Below are positions 223 through 28,073 of a stretch of 28,073 nt of DNA, in pieces. Source of the DNA: a virus; the IMG/VR virus record IMGVR_UViG_3300021255_001591, positions 1 to 28,073 of that record, one strand, 5' to 3'. Positions within the stretch are counted from its first letter, which is position 1; every line of letters begins with the position of its first letter. The notes beneath the pieces were generated by a model. It saw only the letters and a list, made by a program, of their open reading frames with translations. It made no database searches and had not been told where the DNA came from. Made by a program: the position numbers and the translations under genes.

Positions 223-603
223 TCACCCCTTTTCGGGCATCGCCCACTCGGTTCCGTACTTGTCTGTTATCTGCTTGAAGTCTTCGTAATCATGGGGAAC
301 TATTTTTGAGTTTTCCCCAACGTGTAAAAGTTCATGTTCAAGTAATATTTCATATTGCTTTTGATTAAAATATTCACAATTCGGTGTGTAGATCACTATA
401 TAAAAATTTGCATCAATGAAAGTTTTATCTATTTCTTTGACCTTTATGCACTGCCCGAAAACTGTTTTTTTGCCGTTTCTTTTTGCTTTATCGCAAAGGA
501 GATACTTTATTTTTATATCCTTTTCCTTTATCCAGTTAAGCTCCGGCACCTCGGATATAACCTTTTCGGCAAGCTTTGTTATTTCCTTGCTTTCTGTGTA
601 CAT
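223..603 (-). CDS. Putative phage zinc metallopeptidase (HExxH motif)
   Basis: 126 aa from ATG at 603, overlapping the endolysin stop (TGATG). The HELLH motif lies in LLEHELLHVG. The first M in the track is a TTG. Confidence 0.6.
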   Translation of the reverse strand: MYTESKEITKLAEKVISEVPELNWIKEKDIKIKYLLCDKAKRNGKKTVFGQCIKVKEIDKTFIDANFYIVIYTPNCEYFNQKQYEILLEHELLHVGENSKIVPHDYEDFKQITDKYGTEWAMPEKG

Positions 604-1484
604 CAATCAAACAGTCCTTTCCGGTCAAGGGAAACATAAACCCGTAAAGTATCATAGGTAAGTGAAAGCCCTTTATCATCGCCTACGATAAAACCCTTTT
701 CTACAAGTTTTTGAACCGTTTCCTTACCCCACTCAGGGACTTCATCAAGGTTGCTGTACTTTTTGGGAGCGAGAGCCTGTACGACCGTGTCGATTTTTCT
801 GTCGACCATAGCCATCAGCTCATCATTCTGTAATTTGTTGTATTTATATATCATATTGTTACAAATCTTTTCCACTTCTGCCGTTGTCATATCATCACCC
901 CATTCGTAACAAATGTTCATATCAACATTGCCGTCTATGCCTTTTACTCTGCCTTTGCTTGTGTATTGCCATATTATTTCGCCACAATTTGGCTTGTAGT
1001 CAGCCCACACCGTACCGTCATTGCCACCGTAGGCGGCAAGCCAGAGTGGATAGCCCTTCACCCCTCGTAAATAGCTGTAGTAATAGTTAAAACCTGTATA
1101 AATACCCACTTCGTAGCCGTGAGCGTTCATAATGTTGGTAAATTCTTTGATGGCGTTTTTCGCATACCACCCCAAATACTCTTCTTCGACATCGTACCAA
1201 ACAGGACCCGTAATTTTGCCTTCACACCGCTCTATTTGTGTTATGGCGTGATACGCTTCCGAAACTGCTTCCTGTGTGGTCTGTGCGTAAGAGTATATAT
1301 ACGCTCCTACTTTTAATCCTGCATTATAAGCATTTTCCACATTTCGCACAAATGTATAATCGTTTTGGCTTTCAAAATTACAGCCATAGCCTAATTGGCA
1401 AATTACACCTGTGATCCCGTCTTTTTTTACAGCCTTAAAATCAATGTCGCCGTTGTGCTTACTTACATCAATTATCTTTTCCAT
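603..1484 (-). CDS. Endolysin, GH25 muramidase with C-terminal SLH-like cell-wall-binding segment
   Basis: N-terminus IIDVSKHNGDIDFKAVKKDGITGVI and WYDVEEE are typical GH25 signatures. SD gaggtgagg precedes the start. It sits directly downstream of the holin. The C-terminal DEVPEWGKETVQKLVEKGFIVGDDKG...LTYDTLR resembles an SLH motif. Confidence 0.85.
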   Translation of the reverse strand: MEKIIDVSKHNGDIDFKAVKKDGITGVICQLGYGCNFESQNDYTFVRNVENAYNAGLKVGAYIYSYAQTTQEAVSEAYHAITQIERCEGKITGPVWYDVEEEYLGWYAKNAIKEFTNIMNAHGYEVGIYTGFNYYYSYLRGVKGYPLWLAAYGGNDGTVWADYKPNCGEIIWQYTSKGRVKGIDGNVDMNICYEWGDDMTTAEVEKICNNMIYKYNKLQNDELMAMVDRKIDTVVQALAPKKYSNLDEVPEWGKETVQKLVEKGFIVGDDKGLSLTYDTLRVYVSLDRKGLFD

Positions 1485-1692
1485 CTTGCCTCACCTCGGG
1501 CAATCCCGCCAAGCTTGTTAACATCGATAGTATGCCCGAAAGCACGGCAGTTGATATAACGGTTTTCCAGTCAACAGCAGACATAAGAGCCGTTGTGCCT
1601 ATCATCGCAACTGCTGTCTGTGCCATTGTTTTAATTGCTCTTATCAGAGCGGCTTCAAACCACCGCTCAAAGTACGTGTTTAACTTATCCAT
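1468..1692 (-). CDS. Holin, phage phi LC3-type (Phage_holin_1-like)
   Basis: 74 aa. The IRAIKTMAQTAVAMIG...VDWKTV...LSMLTSLAGLPE pattern matches LC3/r1t-type holins. It has hydrophobic segments, an SD gagga, and overlaps the endolysin start. Confidence 0.8.
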   Translation of the reverse strand: MDKLNTYFERWFEAALIRAIKTMAQTAVAMIGTTALMSAVDWKTVISTAVLSGILSMLTSLAGLPEVRQDGKDN

Positions 1693-1921
1693 TTTCCAAA
1701 TCCTCGATTCTGTGATTTGCTACCGCTATTTTTTCGTCTATGACTTTTATATCTTGCTCTGCTTTATACATTCGGTCTATCAGGCTGTTATGTGATTGCA
1801 CTTTTTTCTCTAACTGTTCAAGCCGATACACGACCAGCTTATTGTTGAGCACCAAGCCCACAAAAGCACCGATACCCGAACCTATCAGCCCAACAAGAGC
1901 GGATATTATAGTTGTTGTCAT
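1685..1921 (-). CDS. Small membrane-anchored coiled-coil protein of the lysis cassette (holin accessory, XhlA-like role possible)
   Basis: 78 aa. N-terminal TM (IISALVGLIGSGIGAFVGLVL) is followed by a heptad-like coiled coil. It overlaps the holin start. Confidence 0.55.
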   Translation of the reverse strand: MTTTIISALVGLIGSGIGAFVGLVLNNKLVVYRLEQLEKKVQSHNSLIDRMYKAEQDIKVIDEKIAVANHRIEDLENG

Positions 1922-1935
1922 ACTATCTCACCGCC

Positions 1936-2109
1936 TCAGTAGCGCTTTACTTCAACACCAATTTCCTCTAAACTTTTCTTGTGTACCCAATGTCTACTCA
2001 TAAACGTTTCGTAGGTTTTATGATTAACCTCTTTTCCGTCATACTCACCGTAATATCTGCCGTTCTTGTATTCGACCGTACCCGTTATGCTGTCGTATTC
2101 AAATTTCAT
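1936..2109 (-). CDS. Hypothetical small protein (57 aa), below the ORF-track cutoff
   Basis: Hand translation gives MKFEYDSITGTVEYKNGRYYGEYDGKEVNHKTYETFMSRHWVHKKSLEEIGVEVKRY. A strong SD ggagga lies 6 nt upstream of the ATG at 2109. The ORF overlaps the RT stop by 11 nt and fills an otherwise empty gap. Confidence 0.5.
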   Translation of the reverse strand: MKFEYDSITGTVEYKNGRYYGEYDGKEVNHKTYETFMSRHWVHKKSLEEIGVEVKRY

Positions 2110-3133
2110 ATATATTCCTCCTATAAAAATTATCTATGTGTTGTATCTTTTTATAACAATTATATCTATTAATTAAACTTTGTCGCCAAGCTTTGTAATT
2201 ATTTGCTATTTCCTCAACACTCATAAAGCGTTTAAGTTTAAGCAGTTTGCATTTTTCTCTTTGAATAGCCTTTCTCTTTAGTGTCACAGTTATCTTGCCA
2301 CTTTTCGAAATGGTGTACTTCTTTTTCAAGAAAGTAAAGCCGTGCGAGAGCTTGACTATATGTGTTTTCTGTGCGTGAATATTCAACTTATTTTTTACAC
2401 ATACTTCTTTGAGTTCGCTATATAAATCTTTTAAAAAATCTTTTGACGAATGTATGATGTAAATGTCGTCCATATATCGCCCGTAATACTTACAACCTTT
2501 AACTGTTTTACAATAAGTGTCTACGGGGTTCGCATACAGTATTCCTATGGATTGCGATATAGGATTACCGATAGCTACAGACTTATCTCCGAAGCTATCA
2601 ATAATACTTTCAATAAAAACTTTGAGATTGTTGTCGCAATTTACATATTTGAATAACAAGTCCTTTGCCTGTTTATGGTCTACATTATCAAAATATTTAG
2701 CAAAGTCCATTTGGAGTATATAGCCGTCAGCTCCGTGGTGTCGGTAATACCGTCTTAGATGTTCCTTTAATCTATTTTCGGTAAATGTAACACCTTTGCC
2801 TTTCTGTGAAGCTCCGTTATCATATATTAAATACTTTTCTATGCTCGGCAAAATAACATTGTCATTTAAAGCACCATACACAACCCTATCTCTAATTGTG
2901 TTGGCTCTGATATGTCTTGTTTTGCCTCTTTCGTTTATATCAAATTCAAGACATTTATCAGCTTTATATAAACCGCTTTCGAGGTCGTTATGTATTTGCG
3001 TAAGATTTCTTAAAAGATTAAATTCAAAACGTTGTACACTTTCTTTCCATTGTACATCACGCTTGCATTTCAAAAATGAGCGATACAGCACATTAAGGTC
3101 ACTTATATCTTTGATAGTATGTATTTTGTTCAT
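2099..3133 (-). CDS. DGR-type reverse transcriptase
   Basis: 344 aa. It has the RT motifs YGRYMDDIYII (YxDD) and the DGR-diagnostic IGNPISQSIGILYANPVD (SQ in motif 4). No maturase or endonuclease domains are present. It sits immediately downstream of the TR. Confidence 0.9.
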   Translation of the reverse strand: MNKIHTIKDISDLNVLYRSFLKCKRDVQWKESVQRFEFNLLRNLTQIHNDLESGLYKADKCLEFDINERGKTRHIRANTIRDRVVYGALNDNVILPSIEKYLIYDNGASQKGKGVTFTENRLKEHLRRYYRHHGADGYILQMDFAKYFDNVDHKQAKDLLFKYVNCDNNLKVFIESIIDSFGDKSVAIGNPISQSIGILYANPVDTYCKTVKGCKYYGRYMDDIYIIHSSKDFLKDLYSELKEVCVKNKLNIHAQKTHIVKLSHGFTFLKKKYTISKSGKITVTLKRKAIQREKCKLLKLKRFMSVEEIANNYKAWRQSLINRYNCYKKIQHIDNFYRRNIYEI

Positions 3134-3250
3134 AGTGCATATCCGTAGATAATTGCATCAAAATACTTGTAATTTTACTCTTTCGAGACGGGGAAGTTCT
3201 CCTTTCCATACATTCTGCATCCGTAGACTTTTTTCAGACTTTTGGAAATC

Positions 3251-3339
3251 GGACGAACGCCATTGCTATTCGAAGCATTGTTGTTGTTGCAATTGCCGTT
3301 GTTGTTGACATTCGAGAAGCCGTTAGAATTGGCGACATT
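3251..3339 (-). repeat. DGR template repeat (TR)
   Basis: Ungapped 89-nt alignment to 3944-4032 shows 18 mismatches, all at + strand T (A in minus sense). It is non-coding, lying between the avd-like gene and the RT. In the VR frame it carries 14 AAY codons. Confidence 0.92.
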
Positions 3340-3345
3340 CAGAAC

Positions 3346-3879
3346 TTACCCAAATTGCTTTTTGATTTTATTATCTGCCTTTCGCCACGCACGGAGCAAG
3401 GCAATTTCTTTTTCCACAAGCTCCGTATAGCGTGTATATTTATTTATATCTACATTAACACAAAGGATTGATATTATATATTGCATTTCTTGTAACAAAC
3501 ATTCGCAAGAACAAATCGCTTTGTTTTGATAATTTCTTCTCTCGGTATATTCACTTTCATTGGTAACAAATATTGTATTTGCCGATGCGATGCTTTGTAT
3601 CAGCTCGCTAAGTAACCTAATTATGTTTTCTCGAAAGTGTTCAACAAGCCATTCAGGATATAAAGCCGTTAAGGTTTTGTTGAAACCGTATTTTTCACCC
3701 AAAGCATTAAATACAGCCCTATCTTCTTCCGTGAAGTTGGCTATTACTTTGTAATCCCTTATTTTTGCTTTTATTCCGAAGTCACGAAGCAACAACAATG
3801 TAAATTCACGCCTAAGTTTTACAGCGTGTATCAAAACTTCGAATTTGCTCTCGCCTCGCTTGTATTTAGGAACTGCCAT
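3346..3879 (-). CDS. avd: Accessory variability determinant (Avd)-like protein, unusually long
   Basis: 177 aa in the canonical avd position (target-avd-TR-RT). It is helical and basic, with the C-terminal helix and tail LVEKEIALLRAWRKADNKIKKQ. SD aaaggaag precedes the start. Confidence 0.6.
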   Translation of the reverse strand: MAVPKYKRGESKFEVLIHAVKLRREFTLLLLRDFGIKAKIRDYKVIANFTEEDRAVFNALGEKYGFNKTLTALYPEWLVEHFRENIIRLLSELIQSIASANTIFVTNESEYTERRNYQNKAICSCECLLQEMQYIISILCVNVDINKYTRYTELVEKEIALLRAWRKADNKIKKQFG

Positions 3880-3901
3880 AAATCTTCCTTTCTTTATTTA
3901 T

Positions 3902-3922
3902 CGCACCCTGTATAGGGGTGCG
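3902..3922 (-). promoter_or_regulatory. GC-rich hairpin just downstream of the VR and stop codon (candidate DGR target-recognition hairpin)
   Basis: cgcaccc / gggtgcg forms a 7-bp stem (3902-3908 with 3916-3922) and a 7-nt loop. No U-tract follows on the minus strand, so it is not a classical terminator. Confidence 0.55.
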
Positions 3923-3924
3923 GA

Positions 3925-4848
3925 TTAGCCGATGTATAGAAGCGGACGAACGCCATTGCTACCCGAAGCACCGCCGTCGTAGCAATCGCCGCCGTCGCCG
4001 ACATACGAGAAGCCGCCAGAATTGGCGACATCTTGAAGCCAATACCACTGCCTGCTACTTGTCGCACCTTTATAACCTCTATTGCATTGTATATAATCAG
4101 GTCTTAGTCTAAAAATCGGTAATTGTTTCCTTAACCCACCGTAATTGCATCCGTCATAACTATGGTTCCAGATGCTCTGCCCGTATACCTCCCGTTCCGT
4201 CATCAACTGTATTTTAAACTTATTATCGCCGTCCGCCCAATCATCTTCACTATACCAAGTATAATTACTCTCATAGTATTTCACATTACCTACGGAGTTT
4301 CTTGTGAAATCCGTGCTTGAGCAAATTGAATTATAGGGAGCGAAAATTCTGTCTACGCCGAAAACTTCCTCGAACGCATTAAGATATATTGGTAAAGTGG
4401 TGTTAGCCATTTCACTTGAATGATATCCGTTTTCCGCTGTGTTTGTTGCGTTCATTTTCGCTGTTGTTTTCAAACAATCTTTTGTGATAAGTGCTAAATG
4501 GTTTCTTTTCGCTCCGTCATACTCATCGTTTTCGCTATCCCAGATAATCATATCAGCACCGAATGAGTTTATACCCGCCACAAGCAGCTCAACCTGTTCT
4601 GCACCACCAAGAGAAGTGTTGATATTTACGGTTATCGTGTCGCCTACGTAAATATCCTCAAAATCCCCGCTTTGTACCTTGCTTAAAATTTGTGCTATGG
4701 TGTACTTGTCTGTCAGCTCTACACCGTCACGACATACGCTGTTGTGATTGAAGTTGCTTACCGCTTTGCTGTTTGCAATCGCTTTTATGCCCTCTGCTAT
4801 TGCTTGTCCTGTACTGTCTAAAATAATTGGTTTTGTAATTGTGCTCAT
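3925..4848 (-). CDS. DGR target (variable) protein with C-terminal VR, likely C-type-lectin/DUF1566-like ligand-binding fold
   Basis: 307 aa from the ATG at 4848, with SD ggagga 6 nt upstream. The ATG at 4854 has no spacer. The C-terminus ...WYWLQDVANSGGFSYVGDGGDCYDGGASGSNGVRPLLYIG contains the VR. Confidence 0.85.
   Translation of the reverse strand: MSTITKPIILDSTGQAIAEGIKAIANSKAVSNFNHNSVCRDGVELTDKYTIAQILSKVQSGDFEDIYVGDTITVNINTSLGGAEQVELLVAGINSFGADMIIWDSENDEYDGAKRNHLALITKDCLKTTAKMNATNTAENGYHSSEMANTTLPIYLNAFEEVFGVDRIFAPYNSICSSTDFTRNSVGNVKYYESNYTWYSEDDWADGDNKFKIQLMTEREVYGQSIWNHSYDGCNYGGLRKQLPIFRLRPDYIQCNRGYKGATSSRQWYWLQDVANSGGFSYVGDGGDCYDGGASGSNGVRPLLYIG
3944..4032 (-). repeat. DGR variable repeat (VR) at the 3' end of the target gene
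   Basis: This is the counterpart of the TR. 12 of the 14 TR AAY codons are replaced by D/G/Y codons. The 3'-proximal 18 nt (agcaatggcgttcgtccg in coding sense) are identical to the TR, making them a candidate IMH region. Confidence 0.92.
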
Positions 4849-4850
4849 AA

Positions 4851-5054
4851 TCATTCCTCCGTATATACTATATTTAGTGCGCCGTTAACTACTTTTAAGC
4901 CTAAGTCTTCTATCATATTGTTCACATAATCGATTGTTGCATAGTCGTTAAATCTTTGGTTTATCCCATTCAAGAGATCGACAATGTTGTGAGTTTGTCC
5001 GTCTTCTCCTATAAATCTTCCGGTATGCGGTACCATTTTGTCTATATCAGCCAT
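4851..5054 (-). CDS. Small protein (67 aa) carrying a conserved N-terminal module shared with the LRR protein 25537-26235; possible adaptor for the DGR target
   Basis: SD gaggagg precedes the start. The stop lies 2 nt before the target-gene ATG. The N-terminus MADIDKMVPHTGRFIGEDGQTHNIVDLL is 18/28 identical to the N-terminus of 25537-26235. Confidence 0.75.
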   Translation of the reverse strand: MADIDKMVPHTGRFIGEDGQTHNIVDLLNGINQRFNDYATIDYVNNMIEDLGLKVVNGALNIVYTEE

Positions 5055-5066
5055 TTTTATACCTCC

Positions 5067-6470
5067 TCAACATATTATTTTCTGTTTTTTCTTCTCTCTG
5101 GTGACGGTTGCCTGCCATGTTGCAAGCACAACGCTTTCCACCAAACTTATATCCACTCCCATAATCAATGAGTTGTAACCGAAGCCTCCGCCTTTTCCTA
5201 TGGCTCTATGTTCACAGTTGGTAACCGCTTTTGTAAGGGACGGTTGCCCACAATGTACAATTTGCTCTGCAAAAACTGCCTGTTCAAAGATAGAGCTTGC
5301 TGTCACAACTTCCGAGTATGTTACGTTGAAAAAGCCTTTTATTTTGTTTTCTTTGCAAATCTCGTCAAGCTGTGCTCCGATAGATCCGTCACACGCTATC
5401 GCTTTTACTTTCGGATTTTTAAAATATGGCAAAAGCCAAGCTAAACCTTGCCGTTGTGGTCTGCAATCTATCACTTCGGTAAAAATTTTCCCGTCTTTTG
5501 TTTTAGCAGCTATCGCCAGCGATGTATTGCCGGTATCCTTACCAAGTTTTACACCTAAAAATCTGTCATTCTCCAAAAGCGGAACCGTTTCAGCACGAAG
5601 CTTGTCCCAATCTCTTTGCGTAAATACTCCCTTTACGTTGTAATTGAGCCACAAACCGAGCCTTTGTTGGTTAAAATCAAGCTTATTTTTACCAAGCTCA
5701 TCCTCAACATTTCTTTCGGTAAAGAGATAGCCTAAAGAGGGATTGGTCTCATACCATAAATCTTTGTTTTCTGTGTCTTCCTGTTCCGTTACTCCCCACT
5801 CATACCACATAGAATTTCGGCTTTTGTTTTCTATCACGCTTCTTCGGTATGCTCCGAACACGGTGCCACGGCTTACCTGTGTATCGGGTGTCCCGATCAT
5901 GATCGTTTGTGGACTGCGGGAAGATGTAACGGTGTACTTAAGTGTGGTTTCTTGATCGTCTGTGTACTCTTGCGCTTCGTCAATGACAAGTAAATCATAG
6001 CCACGGCCTAATCCTCCCGTTGCGGTTCGCGTTCGGAAATTTATTTCGCCCTTAGTGCCGTTTATCTGTATTCTTTCGGCGCCTCGTTGTCGGGATAACT
6101 TGAAATCATCTTTTTCTTTAAACCCTAACTCTGTCAACAAGTTTACCATGTTTTCAAAAGAACCGTGTGCGGTATCTACCAAATGAGCGGTATGCAATAT
6201 ACTTTCCTCAAGAGCTATCGCCCCATATAATTCTCTTGCAGTAACCGCTTCCGTTTTCCCGTTTCGCCGTGGGACCGATCCGCCTATTTTGGTATGCACC
6301 CACAGCCCTTCATCGTTCACGGCAAGATAATCATATAAAATTCTTTCTTGCCACGGCAAAAGGCGCCTGCTTGTCTTGTTATATAGGTTTACCGCTTCAC
6401 CGCCTAAGGTCTTTTTATAATCAATTATTCTTTCGAGTGTCGGTTCTTGCCTGCCTTTCCTTTCCTCCAT
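5067..6470 (-). CDS. terL: Terminase large subunit
   Basis: 467 aa. It has a Walker A-like PRRNGKTE and a Walker B LLVIDEAQ, with a C-terminal nuclease-like region. It follows an HNH gene and a small DNA-binding gene. Confidence 0.9.
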   Translation of the reverse strand: MEERKGRQEPTLERIIDYKKTLGGEAVNLYNKTSRRLLPWQERILYDYLAVNDEGLWVHTKIGGSVPRRNGKTEAVTARELYGAIALEESILHTAHLVDTAHGSFENMVNLLTELGFKEKDDFKLSRQRGAERIQINGTKGEINFRTRTATGGLGRGYDLLVIDEAQEYTDDQETTLKYTVTSSRSPQTIMIGTPDTQVSRGTVFGAYRRSVIENKSRNSMWYEWGVTEQEDTENKDLWYETNPSLGYLFTERNVEDELGKNKLDFNQQRLGLWLNYNVKGVFTQRDWDKLRAETVPLLENDRFLGVKLGKDTGNTSLAIAAKTKDGKIFTEVIDCRPQRQGLAWLLPYFKNPKVKAIACDGSIGAQLDEICKENKIKGFFNVTYSEVVTASSIFEQAVFAEQIVHCGQPSLTKAVTNCEHRAIGKGGGFGYNSLIMGVDISLVESVVLATWQATVTREKKKQKIIC

Positions 6471-13738: not shown

Positions 13739-14737
13739 ATGAAAAATCCTAACGGATACGGAACTATTGTTAAATTGCACGGCAACAGGCGGCGGCCTTA
13801 CGCTACAAAGATAACTTTTGTAACACTTGATGCTATAACAAATACCTATGTACGAAAAAGCAAATATTTGGGCTATTACGAAACGCATGAAGAAGCTCTT
13901 ACAGCTCTTGCAAAACATAACATCGGAAGTATTCCCGAGAGTATAGTCGATTTGACATTTAAGGAAGTGTGGGATATATGGGCAAAGAGAAATTTGGAGA
14001 AAGGTTCAAGCTCCCGTACAAGCGCATACACCACCGCAATAAAAAAGTGGGTGCCCATATACAACAAGCGCATGACCGATATTAAGCTCATCCATTTACA
14101 AGATATTATAGACGAGTACGAAGGGCAAAGCAAGAGCGCACTCAATAATATGAAATTGGTAGCAAATTTTGTTTTTGAATGGTCGATAAAAAATGATTTA
14201 ATCACAAAGAATTATGTTGAGTATCTCGATCTGAATCCGAAAGATGTTGCAAACCATGTGCCACTTTCACACGAAGAGTTTAACAGAGCTGTGAATTTGC
14301 CGTTGTCCGAAACAAGTGCCCTGATCAACATTTATCTGCGGTGTGGTTGCCGTCCCTCGGAGCTGCTTACGCTGCCACTGGAAGATGTGCATCTGAACGA
14401 AAGATATTTTGAGCTCAAAAGAGCCAAAACAAAAGCCGGCATAAGAATCGTTCCCATTGCCGAAAAAGCGGTGCAGAGCTTTGAATATCTTACAAAAAAT
14501 GCTTCAAAATTTCTTACAAACATAGATTACCAAGATTACCGCACCCAATTTAACAACCTTGTCCCCGGACATGTCCCCCACGATACCAGAGCAACCTTTA
14601 TATCTTTTATGCAGGAAAAGGAAGTCCCGTTACCAATAATTCAAAAAATAGTCGGGCATGTTTCGGGAAACATCACCACCGATGTTTACACTAAAATTTC
14701 GCTTGAACCAATGCTGAAAGCGGTCAATAATTTGTAA
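13739..14737 (+). CDS. int: Tyrosine integrase (site-specific recombinase, phage integrase family)
   Basis: 332 aa with SD aaggagg. It has an N-terminal SAM-like domain. Catalytic residues are CGCRPSEL (R), HVPHDTRAT (HxxR), GHVSG (H) and DVYTK (Y). Confidence 0.9.
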   Translation: MKNPNGYGTIVKLHGNRRRPYATKITFVTLDAITNTYVRKSKYLGYYETHEEALTALAKHNIGSIPESIVDLTFKEVWDIWAKRNLEKGSSSRTSAYTTAIKKWVPIYNKRMTDIKLIHLQDIIDEYEGQSKSALNNMKLVANFVFEWSIKNDLITKNYVEYLDLNPKDVANHVPLSHEEFNRAVNLPLSETSALINIYLRCGCRPSELLTLPLEDVHLNERYFELKRAKTKAGIRIVPIAEKAVQSFEYLTKNASKFLTNIDYQDYRTQFNNLVPGHVPHDTRATFISFMQEKEVPLPIIQKIVGHVSGNITTDVYTKISLEPMLKAVNNL

Positions 14738-14750
14738 CTAATTTGTAACT
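14729..14750. repeat. Tandem 11-bp repeat aatttgtaact x2 spanning the int stop codon
   Basis: aatttgtaact occurs at 14729-14739 and 14740-14750, with a third copy at 14893-14903. Confidence 0.7.
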
Positions 14751-14892
14751 AACGACCTAAAAAGCAAAAAATAAAAACCCCCATAATCCCGTATTTTTCG
14801 GGGTTTCAAAATGGGGACAAAATAATACTATTTTATAATTTCAAATTGATAAAATTGTGATTTAAAGCCTACTCACAAGGAATGTTGTAAAC

Positions 14893-14903
14893 AATTTGTA
14901 ACT
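14893..14903. repeat. Third copy of aatttgtaact (candidate Int arm-type site / attP region)
   Basis: This is an exact 11-mer (13-mer with the trailing aa) matching 14729-14750. It lies in the 290-bp non-coding region downstream of int. Confidence 0.6.
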
Positions 14904-14906
14904 AAT

Positions 14907-14948
14907 AAAGGCACGATTGTATATATTTCGTGCCTTTTTTTATTTTTA
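14907..14948 (+). terminator. Intrinsic terminator downstream of the int region
   Basis: aaaggcacga-ttgtatatatt-tcgtgccttt forms a 10-bp stem and is followed by tttttatttttatt. Confidence 0.8.
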
Positions 14949-15010
14949 TTATATCAAATATTTCTTCCTTTGTTCAAGAAAAATTTTTTTACATAAATTT
15001 AAATTTTATA

Positions 15011-15039
15011 TTGACTTTATGTAAACTCTATGATATACT
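15011..15039 (+). promoter_or_regulatory. Strong sigma-70-type promoter of the moron cassette (TTGACT-17-TGaTATACT)
   Basis: TTGACT is at 15011-15016 and the extended -10 tgatatact at 15031-15039, with 17-nt spacing. This is 48 nt upstream of the GNAT ATG. Confidence 0.7.
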
Positions 15040-15086
15040 ATAGTTACAGTAAAGGAAAGCAAAAAAGCAAAGAAAGGAAGAGCACC

Positions 15087-15425
15087 ATGTTAAAGATAGA
15101 AAAAAGACTTGCAGAAAATGAGGATGCATACAAATTTTATGATATCGACATCATTCTCGATGATGTGAAAATAGGTTATGCGGAGCTGTTTATTATAGAC
15201 GAGTACAACTACATAAAAAGCATTGAAATAAAAAAAGAGTATAGAAACAAAGGATACGGAACAAAAGTATTAACAGACCTTGCAGCAGAGCTCGATGGAC
15301 TGTATATCTGCCCGGATAACAACGATGCCGAAAGACTATATGCAAGGCTCGGAGACGAAACAAGTGCACCCGGATGTTTGGAAAGTGAAACTGACGAATA
15401 CGGCACTATGTACTATATAGGATAA
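15087..15425 (+). CDS. Small GNAT-family N-acetyltransferase (moron)
   Basis: 112 aa from the ATG at 15087 (SD aaaggaag). The acetyl-CoA motif is IEIKKEYRNKGYGTKVLTDL (R-x-x-G-x-G). The track start at 15030 lies inside the promoter. Confidence 0.75.
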   Translation: MLKIEKRLAENEDAYKFYDIDIILDDVKIGYAELFIIDEYNYIKSIEIKKEYRNKGYGTKVLTDLAAELDGLYICPDNNDAERLYARLGDETSAPGCLESETDEYGTMYYIG

Positions 15426-15482
15426 AAAATTATTAAGCAAGCAAAAGGCGGCAAACAGCCGCCAAAGAAAGGAGAAATAAAA

Positions 15483-15902
15483 ATGAAAAAAATTATCAAT
15501 GGAAGACTTTATGACACAGAGACAGCAAAAGAGCTTGGAAGTGACGGTTACAGCAACCGCCGAGACTTCCACTACTGGGCGGAAACACTCTACAAAAAAA
15601 GAACAGGGGAGTTTTTTATATATGGTGAGGGAGGACCCTTATCAAAATATGCCGAAGCCGTCGGCTTAAATGGATGGTCGGGCGGCGAGCGTATAATGCC
15701 GCTCAGCTATGCAGAAGCTCAAAAATGGGCTGAAGAACATCTTAACGGAGATGAATATATAGAAATCTTCGGCGAACCCGAAGAGGATGATACAAAGCAA
15801 AAAATAACGCTGTCGCTATCAGTGGCGGCGATTGCCAAAGCCAAGCAAGAAGCGGCAAAAGCAGGAATAACGTTATCCGCTTACGTAGAAAATCTTATAT
15901 AA
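15483..15902 (+). CDS. Hypothetical protein with C-terminal ribbon-helix-helix-like tail
   Basis: 139 aa with SD aaaggaga. The C-terminal KITLSLSVAAIAKAKQEAAKAGITLSAYVENLI has a beta-strand, helix, helix pattern like CopG/RHH. Confidence 0.65.
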   Translation: MKKIINGRLYDTETAKELGSDGYSNRRDFHYWAETLYKKRTGEFFIYGEGGPLSKYAEAVGLNGWSGGERIMPLSYAEAQKWAEEHLNGDEYIEIFGEPEEDDTKQKITLSLSVAAIAKAKQEAAKAGITLSAYVENLI

Positions 15903-15912
15903 AAAATGGTAA

Positions 15913-15932
15913 AGGGCGTGAATCCACGCCCT
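15913..15932. terminator. Hairpin terminator between convergent genes
   Basis: agggcgtg-aatc-cacgccct forms an 8-bp GC-rich stem. It is flanked by an A-run upstream and tattttattt downstream. Confidence 0.75.
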
Positions 15933-15936
15933 TATT

Positions 15937-17250
15937 TTATTTAACATACATAACCATTTCTTTTACTTCGTTCGCACCTGTTTTTTTGAAAAATCGCATC
16001 TTGTAAACGTTGCCGTTTTTCTTCCTGTACCATGTTGCTTTTCTTCCCGTGTTTCTGGTACGCAAATACTGAACACTTCCTGCCCAGTGCCAAGGATCCA
16101 CCGGCAGCGTATTATATAAATCATATCCCTGGTAGTTATCAATTACCAGTAGGCCATGAGGACCCGAGTTGTAAAATGCATTATAACTACTACCGCAATT
16201 AAAGTGGTATGGTACATAAGCGTATTCAAGATTTGTCATATTTGCAAATGCTGTTAAGCTTCCTGCTCCAAGCCAACCGGGATCAATGATCAATCGTTTT
16301 ATGTATGTGTTGTAATAAAAAGGTCCCTCCGCGACGGCTCCCGTTTCGGGGTCGTAATATTCACCGATGGAACGCAACACATTCGGTGCCGGCAAGTTTA
16401 CCACCGTTGCTTTTAAATTATAGAAACAAGACGGTCCCAGATATGTAGCATTTGGATTTAATGTAAAGCTTGCAAGTGTGTCCGAATCGTCATAAGTTGG
16501 CAAGCACCTTTTTCCGAAATAGAGCACTTGTTCAAAATTTATTATATCACTGCCGGAGGGGAACGATGTATTTAAACCGAAATTGTTTATTTTTGTTATA
16601 GTTTGTACATTGTGGAGCTTAACAGCCGCAGGCGTAAAGCCTTGCCTTCCCGTTGCTTCATAAAAAGCATGGTCGGGTATCTCTGTAAGGTTGAGCTTAA
16701 GCTCAATCTTATAAGTGTCTCCTATGCAATGTACCCACGCAAAAGCATACTTACCTAAGTTTGAAATGCCGGCTCCTGAAAGAGATTGTGTTATGCCTCT
16801 TGCCCATCTGCCTGCAAAAGCATACTCTCCCACACTTACAAGAGATGAAGGGAGATTAATATCGTAAAGAGGCACCGTTGGTATGCTTCCCGTTTCCGAA
16901 TAGCAAAAGGCATAAGTGCCTATAGTGGTAAAGTTTTCGGGAATCGTTATGATATATGGAGTAGCATCGTAAAAACCTATTGCGGATAAATCGCTGTATG
17001 AATTGTTTATAGGTTCCCCTTTAAAAGCATTGTCGCATATAGTGGTACCGGCAGAAAGAAAATATAAATTATCTACCGGTACGTTTAAGCTCTTCCACGG
17101 TGTTGATGTAACGCTGCCGTCAATAAGAAGTGCCGATCTGTAGGGTGTAGTTACTCCCGTTGTGGTATTGATTCTATAATTTATCCAAAATTCGTAAGTT
17201 CCTCCACAATCTCCGGAGTCTGCAAGTCGCCACTCGTAAACAATAGCCAT
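15937..17250 (-). CDS. BspA-like leucine-rich-repeat (LRR_5-type) protein, putative receptor-binding/tail-tip protein
   Basis: 437 aa and the last gene of the tail module. It has repeated motifs such as IPENFTTIGTYAFCYSE, INLPSSLVSVGEYAFAG, ISNLGKYAFAWV, LTEIPDHAFYEA and LRSIGEY. Confidence 0.6.
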   Translation of the reverse strand: MAIVYEWRLADSGDCGGTYEFWINYRINTTTGVTTPYRSALLIDGSVTSTPWKSLNVPVDNLYFLSAGTTICDNAFKGEPINNSYSDLSAIGFYDATPYIITIPENFTTIGTYAFCYSETGSIPTVPLYDINLPSSLVSVGEYAFAGRWARGITQSLSGAGISNLGKYAFAWVHCIGDTYKIELKLNLTEIPDHAFYEATGRQGFTPAAVKLHNVQTITKINNFGLNTSFPSGSDIINFEQVLYFGKRCLPTYDDSDTLASFTLNPNATYLGPSCFYNLKATVVNLPAPNVLRSIGEYYDPETGAVAEGPFYYNTYIKRLIIDPGWLGAGSLTAFANMTNLEYAYVPYHFNCGSSYNAFYNSGPHGLLVIDNYQGYDLYNTLPVDPWHWAGSVQYLRTRNTGRKATWYRKKNGNVYKMRFFKKTGANEVKEMVMYVK

Positions 17251-26975: not shown

Positions 26976-28073
26976 TCACCTGCCTAAGAACGTGTTTAAG
27001 CTCTCCTCCGTAAAGTATTCGGGAATAGCCTGGTTTATTTTGTTGATCGCATCGCCCATTCCGCTCATGTCGCTTGGCGTTACCTCAAAAATAGGATGCC
27101 ATATTGCTTTGTAATCCGAAAATACATCTCGTGAGTATGCATAATCGTCGCGCAATGCCGCCGCCGTGTATGCAATGTTCAAAAAAGACGATGTAAAGGT
27201 GCGTTGTGCTTTGGTAGCCATAAGCCTTAAATTTTCATGGCCTGCCTTGATAGCCTCAGCACTTGACGGGTTATCGGTAGAAAAGCCCAAATCGTCAAGT
27301 GTCAATCCACATTCCCCTGCAAACATGGAAGCTATACTTTTCAGTTGGTCGATATAGGGTGCCATTGTCTGCTGTTGAAACTGTCCTATCGCAGGCTTGT
27401 CGCCGTCTTCGTCTTTGGTTATCTGTAAGAATGTTGACATGTACATTCGGAATGTATCCTCGGTCGCATTATCTTCCGAGAGTCCCAACAAATACTTTTG
27501 AGGGTATGAATAAAACTCTCCCGAAACGTCCGCCCGTAGCATTGTTCTTTTAGCTGTGTCTTGCAAATACATACAACTGCGGCTTATTCTTGAATGTCCG
27601 AAGGGTCGTTTTGCATCGGGTTTGTAAATTATAGGAACAAGCTGCGCTGCTACGGTTTTATCTGTCCATTCTTTGTTGTTTTCAATGTCAAAGTAAACTG
27701 TTTCCGCTGGTGTGAAGTATGCTTCAAGTGCGGGAGCTCCTTTGGCATCTCTCTTAAGAACCGCATAACCCTCGTCAAGTAAATTCGTTATAGGGTTAAT
27801 GTTGCCCGTAGCATTTGAACCGTCTATCACCTGTAGTGAAATGTTATCTCCCTGCTTTGAAATATAAGCAAAGCAGCAAGCAGAAATCAGTGCCGATAAT
27901 ATTGCACTATCAAAAAATATGTCCGGGTTGTTTCGTTTAAAAATATCATTTACCGCAAAAACGTCTCCCTGTTCATCTTCCAAGCGCTCAAAGCTCAGCC
28001 TATCGGCAAGGCTGTCCACCGCTTTTGTGCACCAACCGCTCACGGCTTGAAATTGTATTTGCAAGCTTGTCGG
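26976..28073 (-). CDS. Portal protein (SPP1 gp6-like), C-terminal 3/4; N-terminus wraps to 1-218
   Basis: This is a large ORF running off the window edge. It is continuous with the 1-218 frame through the 107-bp overlap. It lies upstream of the head morphogenesis, scaffold and capsid genes. Confidence 0.85.
   Translation of the reverse strand, partial: PTSLQIQFQAVSGWCTKAVDSLADRLSFERLEDEQGDVFAVNDIFKRNNPDIFFDSAILSALISACCFAYISKQGDNISLQVIDGSNATGNINPITNLLDEGYAVLKRDAKGAPALEAYFTPAETVYFDIENNKEWTDKTVAAQLVPIIYKPDAKRPFGHSRISRSCMYLQDTAKRTMLRADVSGEFYSYPQKYLLGLSEDNATEDTFRMYMSTFLQITKDEDGDKPAIGQFQQQTMAPYIDQLKSIASMFAGECGLTLDDLGFSTDNPSSAEAIKAGHENLRLMATKAQRTFTSSFLNIAYTAAALRDDYAYSRDVFSDYKAIWHPIFEVTPSDMSGMGDAINKINQAIPEYFTEESLNTFLGR
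27967..28073. repeat. Terminal direct repeat copy 2 (identical to 1-107)
   Basis: Direct comparison of the window ends shows 107/107 identity. Confidence 0.95.

Follow-up and report, generated by a model that had tools for sequence, protein, structure and literature searches.

Evidence for a complete diversity-generating retroelement in a small temperate phage of a ruminant-gut bacterium

Results

We analyzed the IMG/VR virus record IMGVR_UViG_3300021255_001591, a stretch of 28,073 nucleotides (nt) that we refer to as the window. The minus strand of the window carries what appears to be a diversity-generating retroelement (DGR). Its parts are a target gene with a variable repeat (VR) at its end, an avd-like accessory gene, a template repeat (TR) and a gene for a reverse transcriptase (RT) (Table 1). 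An initial annotation of this DNA had described the order target-avd-TR-RT as canonical, and we agree: as judged from the sequence, every structural element of a DGR is present and intact. The one gene boundary that changed is the start of the target gene. The first annotation placed it at 4854, but gene callers choose 4848 (MSTITK...), which is the most likely start and gives a protein of 307 amino acids (aa) that is already on record (P0014, 100% identical).

Table 1. Features of the DGR locus and its immediate neighborhood in the window
Feature	Coordinates	Strand	Basis or remarks
DGR reverse transcriptase, 344 aa	2099..3133	minus	Pfam RVT_1, phrog_1423, motifs
TR-RT spacer	3134..3249	minus	conservation and consensus fold
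Template repeat (TR)	3250..3338	minus	starts 6 nt past the avd stop codon; gapless alignment and masked-pattern match
Avd-like accessory gene, 177 aa, isoelectric point (pI) 9.1	3346..3879	minus	phrog_3206 match, helical-bundle model
GC-rich hairpin CGCACCC-CTATACA-GGGTGCG	3902..3922	minus	begins 3 nt past the target stop codon
DGR target gene, 307 aa	3925..4848	minus	VR at the extreme C-terminus; alternative ATG at 4854
Invariant GC-rich VR 3' end TGGCGTTCGTCCG, candidate core of the initiation of mutagenic homing (IMH) site	3943..3955	minus	identical TR copy at 3250-3262
Variable repeat (VR)	3943..4031	minus	gapless alignment to TR; position 4032 probably just outside
67-aa open reading frame (ORF)	4851..5054	minus	between TerL and target, directly upstream of target

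The differences between TR and VR are confined to adenines of the TR. In a gapless alignment of 3251-3339 with 3944-4032 (minus strand, 89 nt) there are 18 mismatches, and 18/18 fall on a TR adenine (16 A>G and 2 A>T). None of the 60 non-adenine positions differs. With 29 adenines in 89 nt, a hypergeometric test puts the chance of all 18 landing on A at 1.1e-11, and our realignment agrees with the counts first reported. A search pattern with N at each TR adenine matches the window exactly twice, at TR and at VR, and has no match in 100 shuffles. The VR makes up the last 30 codons of the target ahead of LLYIG-stop. Translated in this frame, the TR reads NVANSNGFSNVNNNGNCNNNNASNSNGVRP and the VR reads DVANSGGFSYVGDGGDCYDGGASGSNGVRP. 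The TR has 14 AAY codons, 12 of which are altered in the VR, as the initial annotation had also found.

The boundaries of the repeats could be placed more precisely. Identity between TR and VR reaches one base further 3' than first aligned (G at 3250 and 3943), giving an identical 3' run of 19 nt. At the other end, the homed region probably does not include the first mismatch (3339/4032, Asn to Asp), because Asp275 is invariant in 25/25 homologues and because, in a related locus (L064), a non-A base just 1 nt inward of it already differs between TR and VR. The core is then about 88 nt and contains 17 adenine mismatches (P 1.4e-11); 17/27 TR adenines differ in the VR and 0/61 non-A positions do. 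The TR itself is conserved among relatives. It is 96.7% identical to the TR of L061 and ~84% identical to those of L053 and L064, which exceeds the identity of the flanking ORFs.

Comparison of the complete cassettes from the window, L061, L053 and L064 indicates how the two repeats are related. At non-A sites, the VRs of these four loci differ from their own TRs at 0, 1, 0 and 1 positions, respectively. When a VR is instead compared with a foreign TR, there are 10-14 such differences in the distant lineages and 3-4 for the close pair formed by the window and L061. Three non-A substitutions distinguish the TR of L061 from that of the window, and the L061 VR has every one of them. TR and VR thus evolve in concert across the relatives.

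The VR has been recently diversified in a sister lineage whose cassette, VR apart, is 88-97% identical to that of the window, with the same element lengths. Two sister-lineage contigs from different samples (L151 and L152) are colinear over 3,647 nt and differ at 19 of these positions. Eighteen of the 19 differences lie within the 88-nt VR, all at TR-adenine sites, and the two TRs are identical. Together with L061, these contigs present one TR and three VR alleles, and 22/23 variable VR sites correspond to TR adenines. The population signature that the initial annotation had anticipated, VR variation at TR adenines with an invariant TR, is seen in L151 and L152.

Among the three sister-lineage alleles there is a sole non-A difference between a VR and its own TR. 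It is found in L061 (2747-2834), where the TR has TCTAAC and the VR has TCATAC; the difference is a T>A change that adjoins a mutated A.

The product of the RT gene matches Pfam RVT_1 (1.7e-15) and phrog_1423 (8.7e-61). The initial annotation had pointed to the motifs IGNPISQ and YMDD, and they are found at residues 188 and 220, consistent with a DGR-type motif 4 ([LIV]GxxxSQ) and a YxDD motif. The best match in the PDB is 8ub7_A, an RT of 328 aa that we take to be Bordetella phage bRT (E 3e-14, 56 bits), in which IGSLTSQ aligns to IGNPISQ. Identity as a group II intron, retron or defense RT was rejected, with scores far under the NCBIfam cut-offs: 80 bits versus 300 for TIGR04416 (group II intron), 54 versus 200 for Drt3a and 41 versus 235 for Retron St85. 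In IMG/VR, 37 of the 50 most similar RT loci (33-42% identity) have an adenine-biased TR/VR pair upstream of the RT. These sequence comparisons support the grouping of this RT with DGR RTs. The RT of L053 (7735-8874) is 379 aa, versus 344 aa here, and has a ~30-residue insertion just ahead of IGNPI(A/S)Q.

The gene between target and TR is predicted to encode a divergent, long Avd-like accessory protein that is seen by PHROGs and missed by Pfam. The window protein matches phrog_3206, 'Avd protein of DGR', with E 2.7e-7, and 33/39 members of its family match the same profile (best E 1.2e-11). The AlphaFold model is a helical bundle with a mean predicted local distance difference test score (pLDDT) of 80 and an extra segment at about residues 32-75. 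Foldseek with this model finds 2rld_A with probability 0.98 and a template modeling (TM) score of 0.74 (target-length normalized), but with E 0.83. We take 2rld_A, from its description, to be a member of the Pfam family that holds Avd (23S_rRNA_IVP). Homologues of the Avd-like protein adjoin related RTs in distant loci from Prevotella, Bacteroidaceae and Bacilli metagenome-assembled genomes (MAGs).

Several Avd-like homologue ORFs read into a TR-like sequence, FANCNNNGNCNNNNASNSNGVRP. The Avd-like ORF in P0094, P0098 and P0102 runs in frame into the TR (…FANCNNNGNCNNNNASNSNGVRPDF), so that accessory gene and TR overlap there.

The target protein is conserved over most of its length and hypervariable at its end. 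Among 25 homologues, the C-terminal 26 residues vary strongly at the AAY-encoded sites, and the other ~280 residues are conserved. Members of the family have in common the C-terminal pattern QLPLF...WWL..V.S..F..V...G......AS...GVRP.FLIG. The close family is small: clustering at 90% identity gives it 11 clusters in a set of 5.8 billion proteins. A wider profile search returned 3,893 representatives, in all of which a domain of ~270 aa lies at the C-terminus of proteins that range from 225 to 1,927 aa; one protein bearing this domain has collagen repeats. DUF6273 is weakly matched by 13/27 close and 35/57 wider homologues, with best values of 1.2e-5 to 1.4e-6. In DGR targets of Flavonifractor and Faecalibacterium phages, DUF6273 is reported to be a C-type-lectin-like domain that carries the VR (PMC10743442, PMC11792537). 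We consider a virion protein that binds a ligand or receptor and has a C-type-lectin-like (DUF6273-related) domain the most likely identity of the target.

Uncultured Bacilli/'Tenericutes' gut MAGs (L071-L148), among them Lapin-002 bin30, Lapin-005 bin63/bin86 and MGBC121705, carry distant homologues of the target domain (27-33% identity), dozens of copies to a genome. An RT and an Avd-like gene lie nearby at few of these loci only (L106, L075, L133/L136). The multi-copy loci may be multi-target DGRs or a large paralogous family of surface proteins.

The 67-aa ORF upstream of the target gene is a conserved partner of that gene. Short ORFs are found at the same place in L053 (98 aa, 5704-6000, with the motif described here twice) and in L064/L065 (57 aa). 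The N-terminal motif of the 67-aa ORF, GRFIGEDGxTHNIV, is fused to the N-terminus of the target in P0007 (57% identity over 35 aa, E 2e-11) and in P0032. The fusion in P0007 suggests that the 67-aa protein and the target act together. Searches of Pfam, PHROG and NCBIfam with the 67-aa ORF gave no match.

The initial annotation proposed the identical 3' 18 nt of TR and VR as a candidate IMH. A common 3' end does exist; the identical run is 19 nt in the window, and ~13 nt of it are invariant in relatives. Mutated adenines reach the 14th base from the 3' end in L151, which leaves just ~13 nt for the invariant IMH-like stretch. This stretch (TGGCGTTCGTCCG) is the only part of the VR that is unmutated in every allele compared, and the flanks of TR and VR diverge right after the common 3' end. 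The 13-nt invariant GC-rich end is common to TR and VR. The hairpin beyond the target gene has a predicted DNA fold of -8.6 kcal/mol (z -2.15). Its position is kept in L061, L053, L064 and L067, where the stem sequences differ with compensatory changes. We looked for a T-run terminator at this hairpin (3902-3922), and none is present.

The spacer between TR and RT is probably part of the DGR RNA. It is ~80% conserved relative to L053 and L064, compared with 67-72% for the coding genes of the cassette and 84% for the TR. Conservation of TR and spacer above that of the coding genes is consistent with constraint on a structured DGR RNA. In an RNAalifold consensus, which has weak support since it is built from 4 sequences only, the 3' end of the TR pairs with the spacer (26 pairs, 2 compensatory). 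The TR-spacer RNA matched no family in Rfam.

In six related lineages, avd-TR-RT is lost or broken, and all six keep the target, the VR, the IMH-like GC-rich end and the hairpin. L052/L059/L060 are without the equivalent of window positions 2125-3882. L056 is without 2304-3849, with 10 avd codons and 68 RT codons remaining, and L065/L066 lack 1,657 nt relative to L064. TR and RT are gone in L149, which keeps the Avd-like gene, and in L067 (L067/L068), which has lost most of the Avd-like gene too. In L150, the RT is split into two ORFs. The loss junctions vary by lineage and all lie outside the TR/VR repeats, which indicates independent events; assembly collapse between TR and VR was rejected on these grounds. 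Thus at least five lineages have deleted avd-TR-RT in separate events, and in a sixth the RT gene is split. At 61/61 non-A sites the orphan VRs in L052 and L056 agree with the TR of the window, and the rest of the gene is 8.6-9.4% diverged. The chance of such a match is about 0.003-0.005 if all sites drifted equally. Two explanations would fit such a match: that a conserved TR was lost recently, or that homing took place in trans.

The initial annotation was right in calling the DGR phage-borne. The window is a circular genome of 27,966 nt with an exact terminal direct repeat of 107 nt (1-107 = 27967-28073), and is either closed into a circle or terminally redundant. Its genes are those of an integrase, of replication, of HNH, TerL, portal, capsid, major tail protein and tape measure, and of a lysis cassette, and the phage is a small (~28 kb), temperate, tailed phage of the siphovirus type. 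The host is a member of the Bacillota of the ruminant gut; relatives of the target were found in an Acutalibacteraceae MAG and in a goat-rumen Bacillota MAG. The DGR region is 100% identical to ENA ERZ28612978 scaffold_3326, and a near match to the phage was not found in the INPHARED phage collection. Adenine-masked TR patterns matched 1 IMG/VR contig, 1 JGI metagenome contig and 0 GTDB genomes. Because these patterns matched so few contigs, we conclude that the element is rare in the three collections.

The gene order around the DGR is TerL, 67-aa ORF, target, Avd-like gene, TR, RT, 57-aa ORF, XhlA-like gene, holin, GH25 lysin, metallopeptidase and portal. This synteny is unusual (223-6470, 13739-17250): the DGR and the entire lysis cassette lie between TerL and portal. 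The tail genes of this genome run straight into the integrase with no lysis genes between. The same TerL-DGR-lysis-portal order is found in other assemblies and samples (L058, L061-L063). Misassembly as its cause was rejected, because the order recurs in separate assemblies from other samples.

Discussion

Based on our results, we conclude, with a probability of about 0.9, that the locus is a complete DGR with the common target-avd-TR-RT layout in a ~28-kb circular temperate tailed phage of a ruminant-gut Bacillota host. The anatomy of the locus, the adenine specificity of the mismatches and the concerted transfer from TR to VR across lineages are seen directly in the loci compared. An alternative is that TR and VR arose by ordinary duplication and then diverged, either by chance or through a process other than a DGR. 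It has the existence of a repeat in its favor and nothing more, and it is ruled out for practical purposes by the probability of ~1e-11 for adenine-only mismatches, by the same pattern with different TRs in L061, L053, L064 and L150, by the copying of non-A changes of the TR into the VR in relatives, and by the DGR-type RT and Avd-like gene in the cassette.

Several observations weigh against our interpretation or parts of it. The substitution spectrum of the VR core is strongly A>G (15/17), a skew that may be due to selection for Gly and Asp and not to raw mutagenesis. None of the 39 members of the Avd-like family matches Pfam, so that its Avd family goes undetected there, and a PDB profile search with the Avd-like protein found neither bAvd nor any other PDB relative. 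The target of the window matches nothing in Pfam at threshold, DUF6273 included, and PDB profile searches with both the close and the wide target alignments found no relative. The AlphaFold model of the target, made from an alignment of 27 sequences, is poor (pLDDT 53, and <50 for the C-terminal 80 residues), and a fold search with it was uninformative. The proposed C-type-lectin fold of the target, which the initial annotation had suggested comparing with C-type-lectin-fold DGR targets, thus draws on the weak DUF6273 matches and on published work. The target gene lies outside the tail module, between the terminase and the lysis genes, and its synteny does not point to a tail-fiber role. Finally, this genome has a single VR allele on record: P0014 is found on three contigs, all with the same VR.

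The element appears to work like the DGR of Bordetella phage BPP-1 and to have architecture B1; it is a kind of system that is already known. It departs from the textbook form in modest ways: a long accessory protein that Pfam misses, a position together with the lysis module between terminase and portal, and lost or broken avd-TR-RT in six related lineages. We compared it with BPP-1 (mtd-avd-TR-brt) as established knowledge on that phage is summarized in PMC5758913. Target, accessory gene, TR and RT come in the same order, the mismatches are at adenines only, and the VR is at the 3' end of the target. Both systems have a GC-rich 3' end common to TR and VR, a GC-rich hairpin after the VR and a basic helical accessory protein. 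The best structure match of the RT here is 8ub7_A, taken to be bRT, with IGxxxSQ aligned. There are also differences. The RT aligns only weakly to 8ub7_A (56 bits, E 3e-14). At 177 aa the accessory protein is longer than bAvd (128 aa), and its model has the extra segment at ~32-75. The TR is about 88 nt with 27 A, whereas that of BPP-1 is 134 nt with 23 A. No similarity of the target to Mtd was found, and the host here is a Gram-positive gut anaerobe. The avd-TR-RT core with an adjacent upstream target is also that of architecture B1 of Wu et al. (PMC5758913). Avd proteins have a mean pI of 9.5, and the accessory protein here, at pI 9.1, is likewise basic; it is longer than a typical Avd.

A second set of relevant systems has targets of the DUF6273 type. 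They are known from phages of gut Oscillospirales, namely nd4/nd12 tgt2 and tentaclins (PMC10743442) and the Faecalibacterium prophages Lelie, CP11, Roos and Pioen (PMC11792537). As in the window, there are small single-domain targets whose DUF6273-like domain has the VR at its C-terminal end, in temperate Clostridia phages, with an Avd gene within the cassette. In contrast to these targets, the window protein is under every DUF6273 threshold, comes from a ruminant gut habitat and has a tiny close family, and its DGR lies with the lysis module between terminase and portal.

The location of the target gene raises the question of what the protein binds from. The target could be a different surface-exposed adhesin, such as a capsid decoration or an accessory 'moron' protein outside the virion, rather than a receptor-binding tail protein. 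In the window, the gene is between TerL and the lysis genes; in L149/L067 it comes after an amidase beside the integrase, and in L064 it is ahead of HNH/terminase. The Ig-like domains of DUF6273-bearing targets (tentaclins) have been likened to the phage T4 capsid protein Hoc (PMC10743442), and a Hoc-like comparison was also made for Mushu, a different target with Ig repeats (PMC11792537). In L053 and L059, however, the gene follows tail-fiber-like or LRR_5 genes in the tail region, and the domain caps long proteins, one of them with collagen repeats. A hydrophobic N-terminal segment was not seen on reading the target sequence by eye, and no signal-peptide predictor was run. On balance, we favor a receptor-binding virion protein and regard an adhesin outside the tail as the less likely choice, albeit one to be taken seriously.

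We also considered that the cassette is intact but inactive in this genome, and that the VR is the frozen product of past homing, heading to the decay seen in relatives. The one VR allele on record is what would be expected in that case, and six lineages (L052/L059, L056, L065, L149, L067, L150) have lost or broken avd-TR-RT and kept the VR, which indicates that loss of activity is common in this family. On the other hand, the RT, the Avd-like gene, the TR, the spacer, the IMH-like end and the hairpin each remain intact, with lengths as in the recently diversified sister lineage. In addition, 17/27 core TR adenines differ in the VR with zero non-A drift, which argues against a long frozen period. 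We therefore consider a frozen VR unlikely. The initial annotation claimed active and recent homing. For the sister lineage (L151/L152), recent homing holds; with one VR allele for the genome in the window, we infer current activity there from the intact cassette and the absence of non-A drift.

We postulate the following mechanism for a complete and active DGR at this locus. The avd-TR-spacer-RT region would be transcribed. The RT, together with the basic Avd-like helical-bundle protein, would reverse-transcribe the TR RNA and misincorporate nucleotides opposite template adenines. The resulting complementary DNA (cDNA) would replace the VR at the 3' end of the target gene, guided by the common GC-rich 3' end and the downstream hairpin. 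About 13 AAY codons among the last 30 of the target would be randomized, on the order of 1e15 variants, and the scaffold residues would be preserved. Attachment of the target to the virion may be the task of the 67-aa protein encoded upstream. We infer the enzymology by analogy with Bordetella phage BPP-1, and we likewise deduce the target's fold and virion role indirectly.

This locus does not change the understanding of DGRs. What it does provide is a natural DGR, clean and complete, in a circular temperate phage genome of very small size (28 kb), and comparison of the related contigs supports one-way, adenine-specific transfer from TR to VR with unusual clarity. With this phage, the phage DGR targets of the DUF6273 type gain a lineage from the ruminant gut. 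The long Avd-like family that is missed by Pfam matters for automated annotation of DGRs.

The graded series of cassette decay in the relatives could be used to ask if loss of the mutator fixes a successful binding variant or if orphan targets are served in trans. We speculate that avd-TR-RT might be a dispensable and shareable module, and that orphan targets might be rewritten in trans by co-infecting relatives that carry a DGR, such as the phage of the window, although we think this quite improbable. If true, a retroelement carried by one phage would generate variation in the receptor-binding proteins of other phages of its rumen community.

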